From a virus: DNA of 13,887 bases. The stretch lies in UHGV virus genome UHGV-0185895. One strand, written 5' to 3'. Shown piece by piece: positions 2,037-11,480 of the stretch. The position numbers and the translations under genes were made by a program. Position 1 is the stretch's first letter; every line of letters starts with the position of its first letter. The notes beneath the pieces were generated by a model. The model did not search any database. It was not told the DNA's origin and worked only from the letters and a program-made list of their open reading frames with translations.

Positions 2037-2721
2037 TCGTGCCCCGGCTGTTGGATTTTCCCCTGTGTTCGGCGGCGTAGTGACAATGAGCAGTCGGGAA
2101 ATCGCCGCTCTGGTTCAGAGTAAACATGGTGATGTCAAACGCTCCGCTGAGCGCCTGAAAGCTGCTGGTCTTTTAACCGCGCCGTTGGCGCAGTTCGATT
2201 TTGAGCATAACGGAAACGTGTATAAGGAGTACCGCTTCAATAAGCGCGACTCATTGGTTTTGGTTGCCCGTCTGTCTCCTGAGTTTACCGCGGCGGTTGT
2301 GGATCGCTGGCAGGAGCTTGAGAACAAATCGGCCATTCCTCAAACGTTACCTGAAGCCTTGCGACTCGCTGCCGATATGGCTGAACAGAATGCGCAGCTG
2401 GCGCATAAGGTTCAGCAGGATGCGCCTAAGGTAGCGTTTGTAAACCACTACGTAGAGTCCGGCGGTGCCAAAAGTCTGCGTGAGACGGCGAAGATCCTCA
2501 ACATGCCAGAAAAGGCCATGATTGACACGCTACTGCGTGACAAGGTGCTGTTTCGCCAGTCCGGCAATCTGCTCCCTCATGCCCTGCGCCAGCGTGAAGG
2601 TCTGTTTACCGTCAAAACGGGTACTTCAGATTTTGGTCATGCCTACACCCAAACGCGAGTAACCCCCCGCGGCGTCCAGTGGATTGCACAGCGCTATGCC
2701 TCTGAACTGATGGGAGGCTGA
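2017..2721 (+). CDS. Rha-family phage regulatory protein / antirepressor with KilA-C-type C-terminal domain
   Basis: N-terminal segment [26 protein letters not shown] is typical of Rha proteins; C-terminal half ([23 protein letters not shown]...) resembles antirepressor C-terminal domains; GAGGAG RBS at 2002-2007. Confidence 0.8.
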
Positions 2722-2722
2722 T

Positions 2723-2902
2723 GTGGAAGAGCATATTCAACCGATGGACCTACTTTATCGTGACCAACACGGCATCGTTGTGCATGTGACTGGATACGAC
2801 GCTGGCCGCCAGCGTGTTATTTACCGCCGCCCGGGATATGAGTGGGAGTGTGCTGCTCCGATGATCATCTTCCGCGCCCGATTCAAGAGGATTGATAAGT
2901 GA
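2723..2902 (+). CDS. Possible small ORF (59 aa from GTG 2723, or 52 aa from ATG 2744), not in the supplied ORF track
   Basis: GGGAGG 5 nt upstream of GTG 2723; its TGA stop (2900-2902) overlaps the GTG start (2899) of the replication gene as GTGA; fills an otherwise 177-bp gap in a tightly packed operon. Confidence 0.35.
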   Translation: MEEHIQPMDLLYRDQHGIVVHVTGYDAGRQRVIYRRPGYEWECAAPMIIFRARFKRIDK

Positions 2903-3780
2903 GCGTTAAATTATCCGCATATGTCTGGGATGGTTGCGCCGCGGCAGGCATCAAAGGCAATAAATTACTGATCATGCTTCGCCTGGCTGATTACGCCAGT
3001 GATGAGGGGATCGCATACCCAAGCGTTGCGACGATTGCGCGCCAGCTCGGCGCCGGGCGCAGTACCGTTATCACTTTGATCGGCGAGCTGGTTAAAGATG
3101 GCTGGCTGACCAAAAAAGAACGGCGTCTCGGTCAGCGCAGCACCAGCAATCTCTACACCTTGAATGTGGCTAAGCTGCGGCAGGCTGCAAATGAACATTA
3201 TGAGGGTCCAAAATCTGGACGTTCAGAATCTGAACCTTCGGAATCTGGACGTCCAGAAACTGAACGTCCGAAAGAGCCAAAAAAACAGGGTTCTCAGGGT
3301 CCAGAAACTGGACACGATCCGTCAGTAAATTCAAAACCAGATCCATCAGTAGGATCTAAACCCCTTTGTCCGGTTCCTGCGGAACCCGACCCGGAAGTGG
3401 TTATTACCGATCTTGCTAAGCAGGCCCTTTCACACCTGAACCTCACAACCGGTTCACGTTTTCAGGTATGCAAAACCTCCCTGGAACATATCCGGGGGAG
3501 GCTGCGCGAAGGATTTACACCTGACGAACTGGCGCTGGTGGTCGATTACAGCGCTGAGAAGTGGGGAAAAGATCTAAAAATGGCTGAATATCTGCGACCA
3601 ACCACGCTCTTTCTGCCGTCAAAATTCCCTGGATATCTCCAGTCTGCAACCAAGTGGGCCGCTGCCGGTCGCCCGAAATGTGTTGATGGAAAATGGGCTA
3701 AAGCCGGAAGTGAAGACCAGGCATTCAAGTCCAGCTATTCAGATGTCAATTACACCGTGCCAAAAGGATTCCGTTCATGA
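2899..3780 (+). CDS. Phage replication initiator-like protein (N-terminal HTH domain plus conserved phage C-terminal domain)
   Basis: 293 aa; N-terminal region (YVWDGCAAAGIKGNKLLIMLRLADYASDEGIAYPSVATIARQLGAGRSTVITLIGELVKDGWL) resembles replication-initiator HTH domains; low-complexity Ser/Pro/Glu linker encoded by iteron-like DNA repeats; GTG start. Confidence 0.7.
   Translation: MSVKLSAYVWDGCAAAGIKGNKLLIMLRLADYASDEGIAYPSVATIARQLGAGRSTVITLIGELVKDGWLTKKERRLGQRSTSNLYTLNVAKLRQAANEHYEGPKSGRSESEPSESGRPETERPKEPKKQGSQGPETGHDPSVNSKPDPSVGSKPLCPVPAEPDPEVVITDLAKQALSHLNLTTGSRFQVCKTSLEHIRGRLREGFTPDELALVVDYSAEKWGKDLKMAEYLRPTTLFLPSKFPGYLQSATKWAAAGRPKCVDGKWAKAGSEDQAFKSSYSDVNYTVPKGFRS
3212..3316. repeat. Iteron-like direct repeats inside the replication initiator gene; candidate origin of replication
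   Basis: AATCTGGACGTTCAGAATCTGAACC (3212-3236) and AATCTGGACGTCCAGAAACTGAACG (3242-3266) are 30 bp apart with about 22/25 identity; a third partial copy TCCAGAAACTGGAC lies at 3300-3313; perfect 12-bp palindrome CTGGACGTCCAG at 3245-3256. Confidence 0.45.
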
Positions 3781-4034
3781 AATCGCAGGTTATATCACTA
3801 ACCCCTGAACAACTGCGCCGCCAGGCTGAAGACATGCTCAAACGTGCCGAACAACTGGAAAAGACGGGGGCCACAAAGGACGCGCTTAAAAAAGCGCTGG
3901 TACCGGCGTTGCGTGAACTGATGCAGGCCAAACATCGCGCACAGCTGGCAGTTGATGAGCTGGTTGATAGTGTTGCAGATCTGGAAGGCCGAGTGTCTCA
4001 TGTCGAGAAAGTAGTGCAGGAGGTGCTGGCGTGA
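3777..4034 (+). CDS. Hypothetical small, predicted coiled-coil protein
   Basis: 85 aa; ATGA overlap with the upstream stop and GTGA overlap with the downstream start; charged heptad-like sequence. Confidence 0.55.
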   Translation: MKSQVISLTPEQLRRQAEDMLKRAEQLEKTGATKDALKKALVPALRELMQAKHRAQLAVDELVDSVADLEGRVSHVEKVVQEVLA

Positions 4035-4927
4035 CGAATGCATATTGTGAATCGCTGGCGGCCATGCGCGCTGCACCGTCCCATTTTCTGAAAGACGTTG
4101 GTGATCAGTGGCGCACGCCTGATCTGCTGTTCTGGGGCGTTAACGCAATGTTTGGACCGCTGGTACTGGACCTGTTTGCTGACGATAGCAACGCAAAATG
4201 CCCGGTATGGTTCACCGCCGAAGACAACGCGCTGACGCAAGATTGGTCCGCTCGTCTGGAAGAACTTGGCGGCGCTGGCTTTGGCAACCCACCGTATAGC
4301 CGCTCCCAGTACCACGAAAAGCAGGCGATAACTGGCATGACGCACATCATGAATTACGCGTCAGCGCAGCGTGAGAAGGGCGGGCGCTATGTATTTCTCA
4401 TCAAAGCAGCACCGAGCGAAACATGGTGGCCAGAAGATGCCGATCACATCATGTTTATTCGTGGTCGTATTGGATTCGACCTCCCGGCGTGGTTTGTCCC
4501 TGCTGATGATAAGCAAAAGCCCACCAGCGCGTTTTTTGCGGGCGCCATTGCCGTGTTTGATAAGGCCTGGCGCGGGGAGCGGTTCGGCTATATCCACCGT
4601 GCGGATCTGGAAAGGAAAGGGCAAGCGTTCATGATGCTGGCGCAGTTTGCTGTTGGCAATACTCCAGCACAGGTAATGTCGCAGCCGGCGGCAGTAGAAC
4701 CACTCGCAACGCCTACGCAATTACCAGAGACGGAATCGCGTATTTGGCCACTGGAGGTAGGGCTTGTGTTTCGACAGGTAGAAGGATCCGAAGGACTGGA
4801 GCCGTCCCAGCAAAACAAGCTGATGGCGCAAATTAACCAGCTGTGGCTGGAGCGTATGCCCACCAGCGAGATCATCACTGTTGCTGGTGGACTGGTAGAA
4901 AGCATGCAGGGGGTGAGCCATGCGTGA
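4031..4927 (+). CDS. Phage-type DNA N6-adenine methyltransferase with a C-terminal extension of roughly 100 aa
   Basis: 298 aa; catalytic NPPY motif (GFGNPPYS); N-terminal region (WRTPDLLF...LDLFADDSNAKC) resembles phage Dam-family methyltransferases; the C-terminal third has no motif I recognise. Confidence 0.8.
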   Translation: MTNAYCESLAAMRAAPSHFLKDVGDQWRTPDLLFWGVNAMFGPLVLDLFADDSNAKCPVWFTAEDNALTQDWSARLEELGGAGFGNPPYSRSQYHEKQAITGMTHIMNYASAQREKGGRYVFLIKAAPSETWWPEDADHIMFIRGRIGFDLPAWFVPADDKQKPTSAFFAGAIAVFDKAWRGERFGYIHRADLERKGQAFMMLAQFAVGNTPAQVMSQPAAVEPLATPTQLPETESRIWPLEVGLVFRQVEGSEGLEPSQQNKLMAQINQLWLERMPTSEIITVAGGLVESMQGVSHA

Positions 4928-6770
4928 GCTGATTGTTGATAATTTTGCTGGCGGTGGTGGGGCATCTACCGGGATAGAAATGGCGATCGGCCGCAGCGTT
5001 GATATTGCCATTAACCACGACGAAAACGCCGTGGCCATGCACCGGACGAATCACCCGGACACGCTTCATTATTGTGAAAACGTCTTTGACGTTGACCCTG
5101 TCGCTGCGACAGGTGGAAAGGCTGTCTGGTTTGCATGGTTCAGCCCGGATTGTACCCACTATTCAAAGGCGCGCGGCAGTAAACCGGTAAAACGTGAGAT
5201 TCGTGGGCTGGCTTGGGTATCTGTTCGCTGGGCATTGGATGTTCGCCCTCGTGTAATGGCTCTCGAAAATGTTGAAGAATTTAAAACGTGGGGCCCGCTG
5301 CTTTCATGTGAGATGCGTCCTGATCCTAAGCGTTCTGGTGAAACCTTCCTGGCATTTGTTGGAATGCTTTCCACTGGTATACCTGCGGATCACCCGGCTC
5401 TGTACGAATGTTGCGAATTTCTCGGCATATCCTCGGATGGCAAACAAGCCAAACGACTGATTGCTGGCCTCGGGTATAAGGTCGAATATCGCGAACTGCG
5501 TGCCAGTGATTATGGTGCTCCGACGATCCGCAAGCGATTCTTCATGTTGATGCGTTGTGACGATAAACCCATTGCCTGGCCGGGAGTCACTCACGGTGAC
5601 CCTAAATCCGCAGCAGTTAAATCCGGAAATTTGGCACCATGGCGGACAGCTGCTGAGTGTATCGACTGGTCTATTCCTGCACCATCGATATTTGACCGTA
5701 AAAAGCCGCTGGCCATTAACACGTTGAAACGGATAGCGCGCGGCATCCAGCGGTTTGTCGTCGAAAGTGATAATCCGTTCATCGTCAAATGCAACCACAC
5801 CACAACACGCGGTAAATATGATTGCTTCCGCGGACAGTCGCTGGCCGATCCCCTGCAAACCATCACCAAAACCCACGGTTATGCGCTGGCGTTACCGACG
5901 TTGGTTCCATTCCTGGCAGGTAATGGGGGTAGCGAGTACCAGGCGAAACCGCGGCCATTGAATAAACCCGCTCATACCATCCTTAAACAGTCTCGCTCCT
6001 GCCTGGTTGCGCCAGTTATCGCGCGTCAGTTCGGCGCCAGCATCGGCCACCGGGCGGATGAACCCAGCGCAACAATTACCGCTGGCGGCGGGGGGAAGTC
6101 ACAGCTTGTCGCGGCCACACTTATTCAGATGGGGTATGGCGAACGTGTAGGGCAGTCGCCGCGCGTTCTAAATCTGCGTAAACCGCTGGGAACAGTTGTA
6201 GCTGGTGGCAATAAATTTGCCGTAACAACTGCGTTTTTGGCGAAACACTACGGCGGGAACTATACCGGCCCGGGCGTCGGACTGGACGATCCTGCACACT
6301 CAGTTACCACAGTCGATCACCATGCGCTGGTTACGTCTCATCTGGTTAAACTGCGCGGTACCTGCCGCGATGGCCAGCGCACCAGTGAACCAATGCCGAC
6401 AATCACCGCTGGAGGTCAGCATGTTGGAGAGGTTCGCGCGCTGCTGGCGGCTAATGATTACGACGAGCGCCGGGCGGATCAGGTCAAAGAGTTCCTGAAT
6501 TCTTTTGGCGTCAGCGAACTGGTGACGATTAAGGGTATTGTTTACCGCATTGTTGATATCGGAATGCGCATGCTGCAGCCGCATGAACTTTACCGCGCTC
6601 AGGGATTCCCTGACTGGTACATCATTGATCGTGACTACCGCGGCAAGAGGTACTCGAAAGAGAAACAAGTCGCCAGGTGCGGAAACGCCGTGCCGCCGCC
6701 CTTTGCTGAGGCGATTGTAAGAGCAAACCTTCCTGAAATTTGTGTTTCTGGTCGGCGTGAGGTTGCATGA
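4920..6770 (+). CDS. DNA cytosine-5 methyltransferase-like protein with a long repeat-containing variable region
   Basis: 616 aa; motif I FAGGGG, motif VI ENV, motif IX-like RMLQPHELYRAQGFPDWY and motif X GNAV are present in canonical order, but motif IV reads FSPDCTHYS rather than PCQ; ATG overlaps the upstream stop (ATGCGTGA). Confidence 0.8.
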   Translation: MRELIVDNFAGGGGASTGIEMAIGRSVDIAINHDENAVAMHRTNHPDTLHYCENVFDVDPVAATGGKAVWFAWFSPDCTHYSKARGSKPVKREIRGLAWVSVRWALDVRPRVMALENVEEFKTWGPLLSCEMRPDPKRSGETFLAFVGMLSTGIPADHPALYECCEFLGISSDGKQAKRLIAGLGYKVEYRELRASDYGAPTIRKRFFMLMRCDDKPIAWPGVTHGDPKSAAVKSGNLAPWRTAAECIDWSIPAPSIFDRKKPLAINTLKRIARGIQRFVVESDNPFIVKCNHTTTRGKYDCFRGQSLADPLQTITKTHGYALALPTLVPFLAGNGGSEYQAKPRPLNKPAHTILKQSRSCLVAPVIARQFGASIGHRADEPSATITAGGGGKSQLVAATLIQMGYGERVGQSPRVLNLRKPLGTVVAGGNKFAVTTAFLAKHYGGNYTGPGVGLDDPAHSVTTVDHHALVTSHLVKLRGTCRDGQRTSEPMPTITAGGQHVGEVRALLAANDYDERRADQVKEFLNSFGVSELVTIKGIVYRIVDIGMRMLQPHELYRAQGFPDWYIIDRDYRGKRYSKEKQVARCGNAVPPPFAEAIVRANLPEICVSGRREVA

Positions 6771-7828
6771 GAGCGTTACTCACCCCTGAGATTGTGCCAC
6801 GCCTCGGCGTGGTTCTATTTAAGCCCGGCCGTGATCTGATGCACCTGTTTTCTGCCGGGCGTGTTTTAGTCGAGGCTGAACCACAAAATATGGCCCGCTT
6901 GCCATCTGGTCGTGTCCCTGATGCCCGACAACCTTTAGCGGAGGATTCCAGCCTGCACGTATTCTTTTCCGATGAGCGTGTGATTCGTGCTGCTGGTGGA
7001 TTGCCAGCGCTTGAACGGTGGCTGTTTCTCCGGCTGAAGAGGTGCCAGTACCCTCATTCCGAGTACCACCATAACGAGATGGTAACGATGCGACATCCGC
7101 CTGGTGCGTTGCTGGTGTGCTGGCATTGTGACAATAAACTGCGGGAGCAGTCGACTCCAGCTATCGAGGCGCTGGCACTTCGTAATGTAGTCGACTGGGT
7201 AATAGATACTGTGCTGATCGGGCTCGGTTATAACAAAGAACGCTCTCTTTCAATCGCAGAGTTGTGCTGGTGGGCAGTTCAGTCAGGTATAGCCGATGCC
7301 ATTACGGAGACGATGGCGCAGCGTGGTCTAGGGTTGCCTGAAGAGCCGTTCCTGTCGGTGTATAAAGAAAGCGATATCCGGCCTACTTTACCGGCCACCA
7401 GCATTCTGCAGGAGAAACTGCCAGCTGCAGGCACAGCAAGGCAATGCAGGCGCAACGAAAATGTCCAGGCGCACCAGGACCAGCCGAAGGGGCTTGCGCT
7501 GACTGCCGATCCGGAATCGCCGGAATCTTTCATGCTCAGGCCAAAGCGCCGTCGCTGGGTAAGCAAGACTTATACCGACTGGGTTAAGCATCAACCATGC
7601 GAATGCTGCCGCAGACCAGCTGACGATCCGCATCATGTCATCGGCCATGGCATGGGCGGTACCGCAACCAAAGCCCACGATCTCTTCGTGTTTCCTCTGT
7701 GCAGAGAGTGCCACGACGAGCTACATGCCGATGTTAACGCCTTTGAAGAGAAGAATGGCACGCAGTTGGAGCTGCTGTTCCGTTTTCTTGATCGAGCTAT
7801 GGCGATCGGCGCAATTATAAAAGCATAG
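6767..7828 (+). CDS. DUF968-like prophage protein (YdfU-like) with a C-terminal Cys/His cluster
   Basis: 353 aa; C-terminal HQPCECCRRPADDPHHVIGHG...PLCRECHDELH cluster typical of DUF968; ATGA overlap with the methyltransferase stop; lies directly upstream of the Q-like gene, as ydfU does relative to quuQ in E. coli Qin (recalled, not searched). Confidence 0.75.
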   Translation: MRALLTPEIVPRLGVVLFKPGRDLMHLFSAGRVLVEAEPQNMARLPSGRVPDARQPLAEDSSLHVFFSDERVIRAAGGLPALERWLFLRLKRCQYPHSEYHHNEMVTMRHPPGALLVCWHCDNKLREQSTPAIEALALRNVVDWVIDTVLIGLGYNKERSLSIAELCWWAVQSGIADAITETMAQRGLGLPEEPFLSVYKESDIRPTLPATSILQEKLPAAGTARQCRRNENVQAHQDQPKGLALTADPESPESFMLRPKRRRWVSKTYTDWVKHQPCECCRRPADDPHHVIGHGMGGTATKAHDLFVFPLCRECHDELHADVNAFEEKNGTQLELLFRFLDRAMAIGAIIKA

Positions 7829-8776: not shown

Positions 8777-8953
8777 GTGAAGCAAAGCGAGTTCAGGCGT
8801 TGGCTTGCAGCTCAAGGGGCAGAGTTTAAAGATGGTACCAACCACTTAAAAATTTACCTCAACGGCAAGCAAACGATAATGCCGAGACACCCGGGCAAGG
8901 AAATCCCGGAGCCGCTGAGAAAAGCAATTTTGAAGCAACTCGGTATCAAATAA
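8777..8953 (+). CDS. hicA: HicA-family toxin (mRNA interferase)
   Basis: 58 aa from the GTG at 8777 with AGGAGGAGG RBS; MKQSEFRRWL...HLK...MPRHPGKEIPEPLRKAILKQLGIK closely resembles HicA as recalled; below the 60-aa cut-off of the ORF track. Confidence 0.8.
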   Translation: MKQSEFRRWLAAQGAEFKDGTNHLKIYLNGKQTIMPRHPGKEIPEPLRKAILKQLGIK

Positions 8954-9000
8954 AAACCAGCCCTCCGGGGCTGGTACTCGTGGAGATTCACTTAATCAAT

Positions 9001-9408
9001 ATGAGATATCCGGTAAATTTTGAGCATGACGAAACCGGCTGGGCGGTATTTTTCCCAGATATCCCCGAGGCAATGACGGGAGGGGCAACCAGGGAGGAAG
9101 CGTTAGAAATGGCGCAGGATGCCCTGGTTACGGCGTTTGATTTCTATTTTGACGACCGCCGGGAGATCCCCGCACCTTCAGCAGAGGGTGAGGCGTTTGT
9201 TGAAGTGCCATCAAGCGTGGCGGCGAAGGTATTATTGCTAAACCGCCTGGTCAGTACCAATACCAGTAACGCTGAACTGGCCCGCATGATTAATACGCGC
9301 CCTCAGGAGGTACAGCGAATCGTGTCTCTTGGTCATAGCACCAAGATCGACACCATTCAAAAAGCACTATCGGTACTAGGACAAAAAATGGAAATAATTG
9401 TCCGGTAA
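9001..9408 (+). CDS. hicB: HicB-family antitoxin (N-terminal HicB fold, C-terminal DNA-binding domain)
   Basis: 135 aa from the ATG at 9001 (MRYPV...); DIPEA, TAFDFYF and VAAKVLLLN segments match E. coli HicB as recalled; lies downstream of hicA in the usual order. Confidence 0.8.
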   Translation: MRYPVNFEHDETGWAVFFPDIPEAMTGGATREEALEMAQDALVTAFDFYFDDRREIPAPSAEGEAFVEVPSSVAAKVLLLNRLVSTNTSNAELARMINTRPQEVQRIVSLGHSTKIDTIQKALSVLGQKMEIIVR

Positions 9409-10843: not shown

Positions 10844-11029
10844 ATGACCTTAGCCCAGTGCATTAAAATGCAGGAAGATGCAATATGTAACAAGGATGTG
10901 GAGGTTATAGATCTGAGAATGATTAATATCTGGGGACAGCGGCAAGCACCATGTGATAGCAAGCCGCTGATGGGGGAGCCGCACTCAGAAACCACAGTAG
11001 TATTTCTACCGGCATGGCTTAACTATTAA
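10844..11029 (+). CDS. Questionable small ORF (61 aa), AT-rich, convergent with the protease gene
   Basis: GAGGA 5 nt upstream of the ATG; 3' end overlaps the protease gene 3' end by 11 nt; no recognisable motif. Confidence 0.3.
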   Translation: MTLAQCIKMQEDAICNKDVEVIDLRMINIWGQRQAPCDSKPLMGEPHSETTVVFLPAWLNY

Positions 11030-11480
11030 ACAACAACTCGAATTTGTTATTTTTGTAGTCAAGCGTGAATGAGCAGTGTTGAAGAAACTCCATCCCAAGA
11101 ATTGCTTTGAAGTGTCGCCCATTATTAACTAAAGGGGTTGCATGAAATTCTTGAGAAAAAAGGCGCCCGTCGTTTGTTAGGCTCATAACCGCCCTGCGAG
11201 CTGTTGAATTAATTGTAGAAGTTCCTCCCCGAACTTGGATTTCGCTGGTAACTGGGAGTTCTAATTCATCAGCAAAATCATTATCGATATAACAGGCGGT
11301 AGCACCAGTATCGATCAGAACCATAGCTGATTCATGTTTCTCGGGGTTCGGTATTTGATAATGATTATCTTTGTCAACCGCTGCAAATGTGACAACTATC
11401 ACGGGTACAGCCATTGGTTGCGGTGTAGTTGAAAATTCCCCGCTGCTGTTCATAAAGTACACTGGTAAATTAATTGCCAT
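11019..11480 (-). CDS. Retropepsin-like aspartic protease (single-domain, presumably active as a homodimer)
   Basis: 153 aa; active-site signature LIDTGAT (D57-T58-G59-A60), Gly-rich flap VRGGTS and C-terminal ILGMEFL motif; opposite strand to all neighbours; sampled 60-nt stretches give roughly 35-45% GC against about 60% near the terminase genes. Confidence 0.7.
   Translation of the reverse strand: MAINLPVYFMNSSGEFSTTPQPMAVPVIVVTFAAVDKDNHYQIPNPEKHESAMVLIDTGATACYIDNDFADELELPVTSEIQVRGGTSTINSTARRAVMSLTNDGRLFSQEFHATPLVNNGRHFKAILGMEFLQHCSFTLDYKNNKFELLFNS

Follow-up and report, generated by a model that had tools for sequence, protein, structure and literature searches.

The virus genome UHGV-0185895 was analysed as a window of 13,887 nucleotides (the whole stretch of DNA studied here), which carries on its + strand an open reading frame (positions 4920..6770; translated, 616 amino acids; PF00145) for a protein resembling cytosine-C5 DNA methyltransferases. 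The question raised by this locus lies in catalytic motif IV of the predicted protein, which reads F-S-P-D-C-T-H where these enzymes normally carry a Pro-Cys-Gln sequence around the nucleophilic cysteine. An initial annotation had proposed either a divergent subfamily which is still a methyltransferase or an enzyme performing altered chemistry on cytosine. From the comparisons described below, the gene probably encodes an active orphan S-adenosylmethionine (AdoMet)-dependent cytosine-C5 DNA methyltransferase, belonging to a large viral clade and having relaxed or multiple specificity and a role in anti-restriction.

Catalytic motifs of the predicted methyltransferase

The codons at positions 5139-5159 (ttc agc ccg gat tgt acc cac) encode F74 S75 P76 D77 C78 T79 H80, and both the sequence and the coordinates first given for motif IV were found to be correct. 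For 28 diverse relatives the N-terminal catalytic halves were aligned, and the resulting profile was searched against all PDB sequences. Across motif IV it aligned gap-free with M.HhaI, the prophage enzyme 3g7u and CmoX, the family string 'wasPDCkhfska' falling on 'CAGFPCQAFSIS' in M.HhaI and on 'IGGPPCQGFSSI' in 3g7u. Within the motif IV variant (F74-S-P-D-C-T-H-Y-S82; 5139..5165, + strand), Cys78, the predicted nucleophile, occupies the column of the HhaI nucleophile Cys81, while Asp77 corresponds to Pro80 and Thr79 to Gln82 (FPCQAFS in HhaI, PPCQGFS in 3g7u). As Asp77 stands in the Pro80 column without a gap, the Asp is a substitution for the Pro of the Pro-Cys dipeptide and not, as had been suggested, an insertion between Pro and Cys. 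The Cys is indeed retained, and is invariant, and the Gln which normally follows it is indeed absent, position 79 being K, T or R in the family. The pattern of Pro before and Gln or Asn after the Cys is thus replaced by Asp77 and Thr79, and no Pro-Cys dipeptide was found anywhere in the 616-amino-acid protein, which removes the possibility that the motif assignment was shifted and a canonical dipeptide aligned elsewhere. S75, P76, D77, C78, S82 and A84 are invariant in the family.

The protein matches PF00145 in three stretches (E 4.5e-21; 76 bits against a gathering score of 22), and motifs I, VI, IX and X lie where they had been placed initially. Motif I (F9-A-G-G-G-G14; 4944..4961, + strand), predicted to bind AdoMet, aligns with HhaI FAGLGG, its residues F9, G11, G13 and G14 being invariant among the 28 relatives. 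Motif VI (E116-N-V118; 5265..5273, + strand) is invariant and aligns with HhaI ENV, Glu116 corresponding to Glu119. The motif IX region (R550-M-L-Q-P-H-E-L-Y-R-A-Q-G-F-P-D-W-Y567; 6567..6620, + strand), which includes QGFPDWY at amino acids 561-567, aligns with motif IX of DNMT1 and 3g7u and contains R550, M551, L552, E556, L557, F563 and P564, all invariant in the family, as are G588, N589 and V591 of motif X (G588-N-A-V591; 6681..6692, + strand). Motif VIII (P201-T-I-R-K-R-F-F208, of the form T-x-R-x-R; 5520..5543, + strand) had been read correctly as TIRKRFF, but its departure from the usual Q-x-R-x-R was overstated: Thr202-x-Arg204-x-Arg206 corresponds to Gln161-x-Arg163-x-Arg165 of HhaI (PQKRERIY), so that both Arg residues are kept, and P201, T202, R204 and R206 are invariant among the 28 relatives. 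The enzyme 3g7u, a canonical PPCQ protein, also carries Thr at the Gln position (PTIRTRYF).

Compared with canonical cytosine-C5 methyltransferases (M.HhaI, M.HaeIII and PDB 3g7u), the family therefore has motifs I, VI, VIII (as R-x-R), IX and X unchanged in order and identity, with the Cys in the same column, but differs in having Asp for Pro, T, K or R for Gln, a conserved His two residues after the Cys, an Asn followed by an invariant His where motif II has Glu, and a variable region expanded into 2-12 tandem repeats. The invariant His of motif II, His33, aligns with HhaI Trp41 (amino acids 32-34, N-H-D; 5013-5021). Two further features of the N-terminal half were recorded separately: His41, His45 and His50 (region 5040-5069, amino acids 41-50) are invariant at positions where canonical enzymes carry aromatic residues, and the third residue after the Cys in the query (C-T-H-Y-S), Tyr81 (5160-5162), is Tyr only in the query's own cluster.

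Predicted fold

AlphaFold2 modelled the catalytic domain of the full-length query with high confidence and left residues 286-515 unmodelled, the predicted local distance difference test score (pLDDT) of the repeat region being 21-31. Foldseek matches of this model were exclusively to C5-methyltransferases, and the two-domain fold of that class was recovered. A family member of 424 amino acids with two repeats in its variable region gave a pLDDT of 82 and a predicted template modelling score of 0.83, and its model superposed on single-specificity enzymes, with 271 of 327 HhaI residues aligned. Taken with the motif alignments, these models strongly support a C5-methyltransferase fold, a nucleophilic Cys, a Glu and an Arg positioned to hold the cytosine, and the AdoMet motifs.

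Distribution of the acidic residue before the catalytic cysteine

An exhaustive HMMER search over 1.84 billion cluster representatives identified 8,181 relatives of the query at E <= 0.001, 2,502 of them at E <= 1e-30, and motif counts were taken from the best 150. The initial annotation had asked whether Pro-Asp-Cys is conserved in a clade, and SPDC was found in 146 of the 150 best representatives of 50%-identity clusters; of the other four, two read RPDC and SPTC respectively, one is a fragment truncated at the N terminus, and one carries an intein whose N-terminal junction was not found. SPDC was also present in all of 120 close homologues and all of 120 profile hits. The Cys is followed by K, T or R, then by His (128/140), then by Phe (106) or His (34), and then by Ser.

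More distant relatives also have an acidic residue before the Cys. These include gp64 of Gordonia phage Kita (positions 2501-4078 of locus L004), Dori gp72 (L005, 2492-3994), Isolde gp77 (L014, 1489-3060), dcm5 of the haloarchaeal virus phiH (L006, 2483-4369), which reads GPECTHFS, and gp028 of Cellulophaga phage phi4:1 (L013, 1486-2778), which reads SLECTHFS; relatives from Gordonia, Mycobacterium and Arthrobacter phages read SPECTNHS. Motif IV of the clade can be written S-P-(D/E)-C-(K/T/R)-H-(F/H)-S, as opposed to the usual x-P-C-Q-x-F-S, and in these sequences the acidic residue marks a large viral clade which extends over phages of Actinobacteria and Bacteroidota and a haloarchaeal virus. 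A literature search for an SPDC or Pro-Asp-Cys motif in methyltransferases found no methyltransferase paper.

Canonical inteins (C-F-P-x-G-T ... V-V-H-N) were found between the Asp and the Cys (SPD|C) in six of the 150 representatives (P0127, P0176, P0201, P0222, P0252 and P0235; CFPAGT ... VVHN), the nucleophile Cys of the methylase being in each case the +1 splicing residue. Inteins are typically located in the most constrained catalytic sites of their host proteins, and their insertion at SPD|C indicates that the motif IV Cys is functional and that the site is under functional constraint.

Comparison with characterised enzymes

The closest characterised relatives are two Aeromonas phage proteins, ARM81mr_p29 and ARM81ld_p31, described as 5-methylcytosine (m5C) methyltransferases with relaxed specificity in the available text of Decewicz, Radlinska and Dziewit (PMC5537653, citing Dziewit & Radlinska 2016). 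With tblastn, the query was 51% identical to phiARM81mr_p29 and 44% identical to phiARM81ld_p31, with 100% of the query covered and the locus tags confirmed. Both proteins resemble the query in FAGGGG, SPDC[KR]HFS, ENV, PT.RKR and GNAV and in their tandem P-x-x-T-[IV]-T repeats, and the genes for both lie in temperate phages, within or close to the replication module, as the query gene lies in an early/replication region. They differ in having five repeats in another order, where the query has six, and in reading K/R-H-F after the Cys, where the query reads T-H-Y. Enzymes with exactly this motif have thus been reported as active, and the query belongs with the phage m5C methylases of relaxed specificity, a group already known though poorly described so far. 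In published restriction-protection assays, plasmid DNA from Escherichia coli expressing homologues was reportedly protected from many restriction enzymes. By extension from these homologues, the query would methylate C5 of cytosine in duplex DNA in many sequence contexts and would serve in anti-restriction.

Two prophage proteins of Paracoccus aminophilus, JCM7686_0772 and JCM7686_2655, of approximately 700 amino acids, are also m5C methyltransferases (PMC3925955) and are called homologues of the ARM81 enzymes by the same authors; their putative link to the SPDC clade comes from identities given in the available text of PMC5537653 (44%, and 34% through Phi2LM21_p23). A search with the Agrobacterium phage protein for a Paracoccus phage homologue found none among the matches listed.

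The nearest solved structure to the SPDC family is CmoX (PDB 8yf3), a phage DNA cytosine C5-carboxymethyltransferase in which Arg350 (equivalent to HhaI Asn304) replaces the motif X Asn and binds carboxy-S-adenosylmethionine (PMC12783734). The CmoX family is defined by SPPC together with the motif X Arg, and its genes often adjoin cmoA and an amide ligase gene (PMC12783734). The query, by contrast, has SPDC and not SPPC, has Asn589 (invariant in the family) and not Arg, and is without cmoA or ligase neighbours.

Tandem repeats in the variable region

The variable, putative target-recognition region between motifs VIII and IX consists of six tandem repeats of approximately 36 amino acids (5832..6491, + strand; amino acids 305-524), each scoring 35-57 bits with a repeat hidden Markov model (HMM). 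In every repeat a [D/E]-P-x-x-T-[IV]-[TV] element precedes a hydrophobic strand and a Gly-rich turn. The HMM detected from 1 to 12 copies per family protein, protein length tracking copy number (r = 0.63), and the smallest members (409-426 amino acids) have two copies. In the model of the two-repeat member each repeat supplies one beta strand and places its P-x-x-T-I-T stretch in a loop of low confidence, as would be expected of a DNA-recognition loop.

The sequence relationships of 863 repeat instances from 151 proteins were analysed by community detection, which replaced single-linkage clustering at 55% identity, as the latter merged all repeats into one cluster. About ten stable repeat types with distinct signatures were obtained (modularity 0.56), and their order in the query is B-D-G-E-A-C. 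For 99.9% of instances the closest relative was in another protein (median best identity across proteins, 66%), and for most instances no match could be detected inside the protein which carries them. The 151 proteins had 145 different type orders, with one type nearly always last (100/151 proteins). The occurrence of about ten types in nearly any order, together with their similarity across proteins, is the pattern of exchangeable cassettes, and such shuffling suggests modular, multi-target recognition.

Tandem target-recognition modules between motifs VIII and IX are a known feature of the orphan multispecific C5-methyltransferases M.SPRI, M.Phi3TI and M.SPBetaI of Bacillus phages, studied by Trautner and colleagues. 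M.SPBetaI has two P-x-x-T-[LV]-T elements in this position; it differs from the query family in its canonical GFPC motif IV and in having far fewer modules. The repeat HMM matched its two modules marginally (independent E-values of 0.03 and 0.12), and BLASTP of the query against M.SPBetaI gave a best E of 0.017 over 45 residues, with no significant similarity outside the catalytic motifs. The likeness to the Bacillus phage enzymes is thus architectural, and homology is not proven. M.BatI was set aside as a comparator, being a small and unrelated prophage enzyme, and the Proxi-RIMS-seq2 paper makes no mention of multispecific phage enzymes.

Genomic setting

The window holds the early, lysis and packaging regions of a lambdoid temperate phage or prophage of the Klebsiella/Raoultella type. 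A deposited protein identical to the query, from a metagenome assembly, is named 'DNA cytosine methyltransferase [Caudoviricetes sp.]', and the nearest other proteins (~91% identity) belong to prophages of Klebsiella, Raoultella and related enterobacteria. At the nucleotide level, the methyltransferase gene gave no matches in a search against phage genomes and two partial matches only, at 72% identity, against complete E. coli genomes.

The gene is immediately preceded by one encoding a Dam-type N6-adenine methyltransferase with an NPPY motif (4031..4927, + strand; PF05869, E 2.1e-41; phrog_111 'DNA methyltransferase') and followed by one encoding a DUF968/HNH-like protein (6767..7828, + strand; PF06147, E 6.8e-69; phrog_96 'HNH endonuclease'). 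The Dam stop codon overlaps the start of the cytosine methyltransferase gene, with 8 nucleotides shared (4920-4927; ATGCGTGA), and the stop codon of the latter overlaps the DUF968/HNH start, with 4 nucleotides shared (ATGA, 6767-6770). Given these overlaps, the three genes, which lie upstream of the antiterminator Q gene (+ strand), are probably coupled in translation as a single unit. The adjacency of the query gene to another methylase gene in an early/replication region is also seen in other phages.

Between an S24 cI-type repressor gene (278-952, - strand) and the Dam gene lie genes, all on the + strand, for a Cro-like protein, CII, a Rha/antirepressor protein, a DUF4222 protein, a replication initiator and a small coiled-coil protein. 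Genes for a HicA toxin (58 amino acids, PF07927) and a HicB-like antitoxin (142 amino acids, PF15919) occupy 8777-9408, between antiterminator Q and holin, and the lysis genes (holin, lysozyme and a DUF2514 protein, the last a probable spanin) are on the + strand. A retropepsin-like aspartyl protease of 153 amino acids (11019-11480, - strand; PF13975/PF13650) is encoded between the lysis genes and Nu1 (+ strand), its gene having the appearance of a moron. Rfam and tRNA scans of the window gave no matches.

Some observations concern the upstream Dam-type protein (4031-4927) itself. It has a C-terminal extension of approximately 100 amino acids and also shows a match to the C-terminal half of a PHROG with the annotation 'PAPS reductase' (3'-phosphoadenosine-5'-phosphosulfate reductase). 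In other phages, e.g. Flotzy (CDS0062), a protein annotated as PAPS reductase is encoded ahead of the cytosine methylase gene, and in such phages PAPS reductase and Dam are probably fused. The idea that the upstream Dam is a non-specific adenine methylase of the Hia5 type was dropped, as the Hia5 group consists of DPPY enzymes of another subfamily.

Proposed mechanism and alternative explanations

In the proposed mechanism Cys78 would attack C6 of a flipped-out cytosine held by Glu116 (of ENV) and Arg206, and AdoMet, bound by FAGGGG and GNAV, would give its methyl group to C5. We infer that Asp77, possibly with the conserved His80, may position or activate the thiol or help to remove the C5 proton. 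In M.EcoRII, mutation of the Pro of the Pro-Cys dipeptide reportedly lowered activity without abolishing it, which is consistent with a viable replacement of this residue. The six shuffled cassettes between motifs VIII and IX would allow cytosine to be modified in many sequence contexts. The enzyme would be expressed from the phage early operon in translational coupling with the Dam-type adenine methylase, and its likely task would be the protection of phage DNA, as it replicates, from the restriction enzymes of the host.

A number of points weigh against this interpretation. The score with NCBIfam TIGR00675 (dcm) was 56 bits, below the cutoff of 100.65, and the Glu of the AdoMet-ribose-binding motif II (HhaI Glu40) aligns with a near-invariant Asn32. 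According to the available text of PMC5537653, the homologue Phi2LM21_p23 was inactive in E. coli in the same group's tests, and the published assays available for homologues, which are restriction-protection assays, do not establish whether the mark is 5-methylcytosine or another C5 adduct. The part given to Asp77 is purely inferred, and the assignment of a separate target to each repeat is drawn by analogy; the repeat profile had no match at E <= 10 among solved structures, and AlphaFold2 left the six-repeat region unmodelled.

These points bear on several other explanations of the gene, among which the possible one to be taken most seriously, while still being less than likely, concerns only the variable region. 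Under it the protein is an active C5 methylase whose repeats form one extended DNA-binding domain of low discrimination (recognising, e.g., CC or another dinucleotide) and not independent modules. The repeats of the two-repeat member were modelled as strands of one small domain in a structure which superposes on single-specificity enzymes, and the match of the repeat profile to the two target recognition domain elements of M.SPBetaI is weak; against this, some ten discrete types occur in nearly every order and number, and repeats are far more alike across proteins than within them, which is expected for exchangeable cassettes and hard to explain for a cooperative domain. A more far-reaching view, which we regard as doubtful, is that the Asp/Glu-Cys site and the shuffled cassettes together define an undescribed viral class of C5-cytosine-modifying enzymes, in which each cassette reads its own target, giving up to a dozen recombinable specificities, and the acidic residue activates the thiol or removes the C5 proton and, at the extreme, permits another mark. 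In canonical enzymes thiol activation and removal of the C5 proton are left to solvent.

The altered chemistry raised in the initial annotation would retain the fold and the covalent attack of the Cys on C6, but would place a non-methyl adduct (carboxymethyl or of the hydroxymethyl type) on the base or prime it for hypermodification, the Asp in place of Pro adapting the pocket to another donor. A motif IV which is both non-canonical and invariant, the Asn32 of motif II and assays which, as far as the available text goes, leave the mark chemically unidentified can be read in its favour. Yet CmoX specificity depends on an Arg where motif X otherwise has Asn, and the query has SPDC and GNAV with an invariant Asn; the homologues are reported, in the text available, to act when expressed alone in E. 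coli; and neither in the window nor in the phages inspected did a cmoA, ligase, TET/JBP, glycosyltransferase or other tailoring gene lie near the methylase gene. The query is neighboured by genes for Dam, DUF968/HNH, a replication protein and Q, and in Flotzy, ZF40, BgManors32, YMC/01/01/P52, phiARM81mr, phiARM81ld, Kita, Dori and phiH, none of which has tailoring genes near the homologue, genes for other methylases, for PAPS-reductase/Dam fusions and for replication or recombination lie beside it. With the motif X Asn kept and no partner gene adjoining, altered chemistry or hypermodification found no positive support and is considered improbable. It is more improbable still that the protein is a methylase homologue which has lost its catalytic activity, wholly or in part, and serves as a DNA-binding regulator or decoy. 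The absence of the Pro and the Gln, the homologue reported to give no protection in E. coli and the low NCBIfam score would be compatible with such a protein, but all catalytic and cofactor residues other than the Pro and the Gln are unchanged in thousands of sequences, the Cys codon is a target of inteins, and homologues with the same motif are reported as active in the text available. A substrate other than duplex phage DNA, whether RNA (as for Dnmt2 on tRNA) or DNA only when single-stranded or replicating, is likewise very hard to credit, given the reported protection of plasmid DNA from restriction enzymes in homologue-expressing cells and the large variable region of DNA type between motifs VIII and IX. 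An active C5-methyltransferase of a divergent subfamily, the other proposal made at the outset, is favoured by the invariant motif IV, the retention of the other motifs, a fold matched only by C5-methyltransferases and the reported activity of SPDC homologues.

Significance

As a gene call the locus is an ordinary one, a temperate phage carrying an orphan cytosine methylase beside an adenine methylase for restriction evasion, and the interest of the motif in itself is modest; the leads beyond it are the cassette architecture and the extent, so far unrecognised, of the clade with an acidic residue before the Cys. The Pro-Cys dipeptide of C5-methyltransferases, taken to be 'invariant', does vary, and annotation rules or motif screens which require it will overlook this clade or flag it wrongly. 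Should the cassettes be independent readers, these proteins would be natural, recombinable multi-specific methylases, with a bearing on phage-host arms races, on the interpretation of m5C methylomes and on the engineering of methylase specificity.

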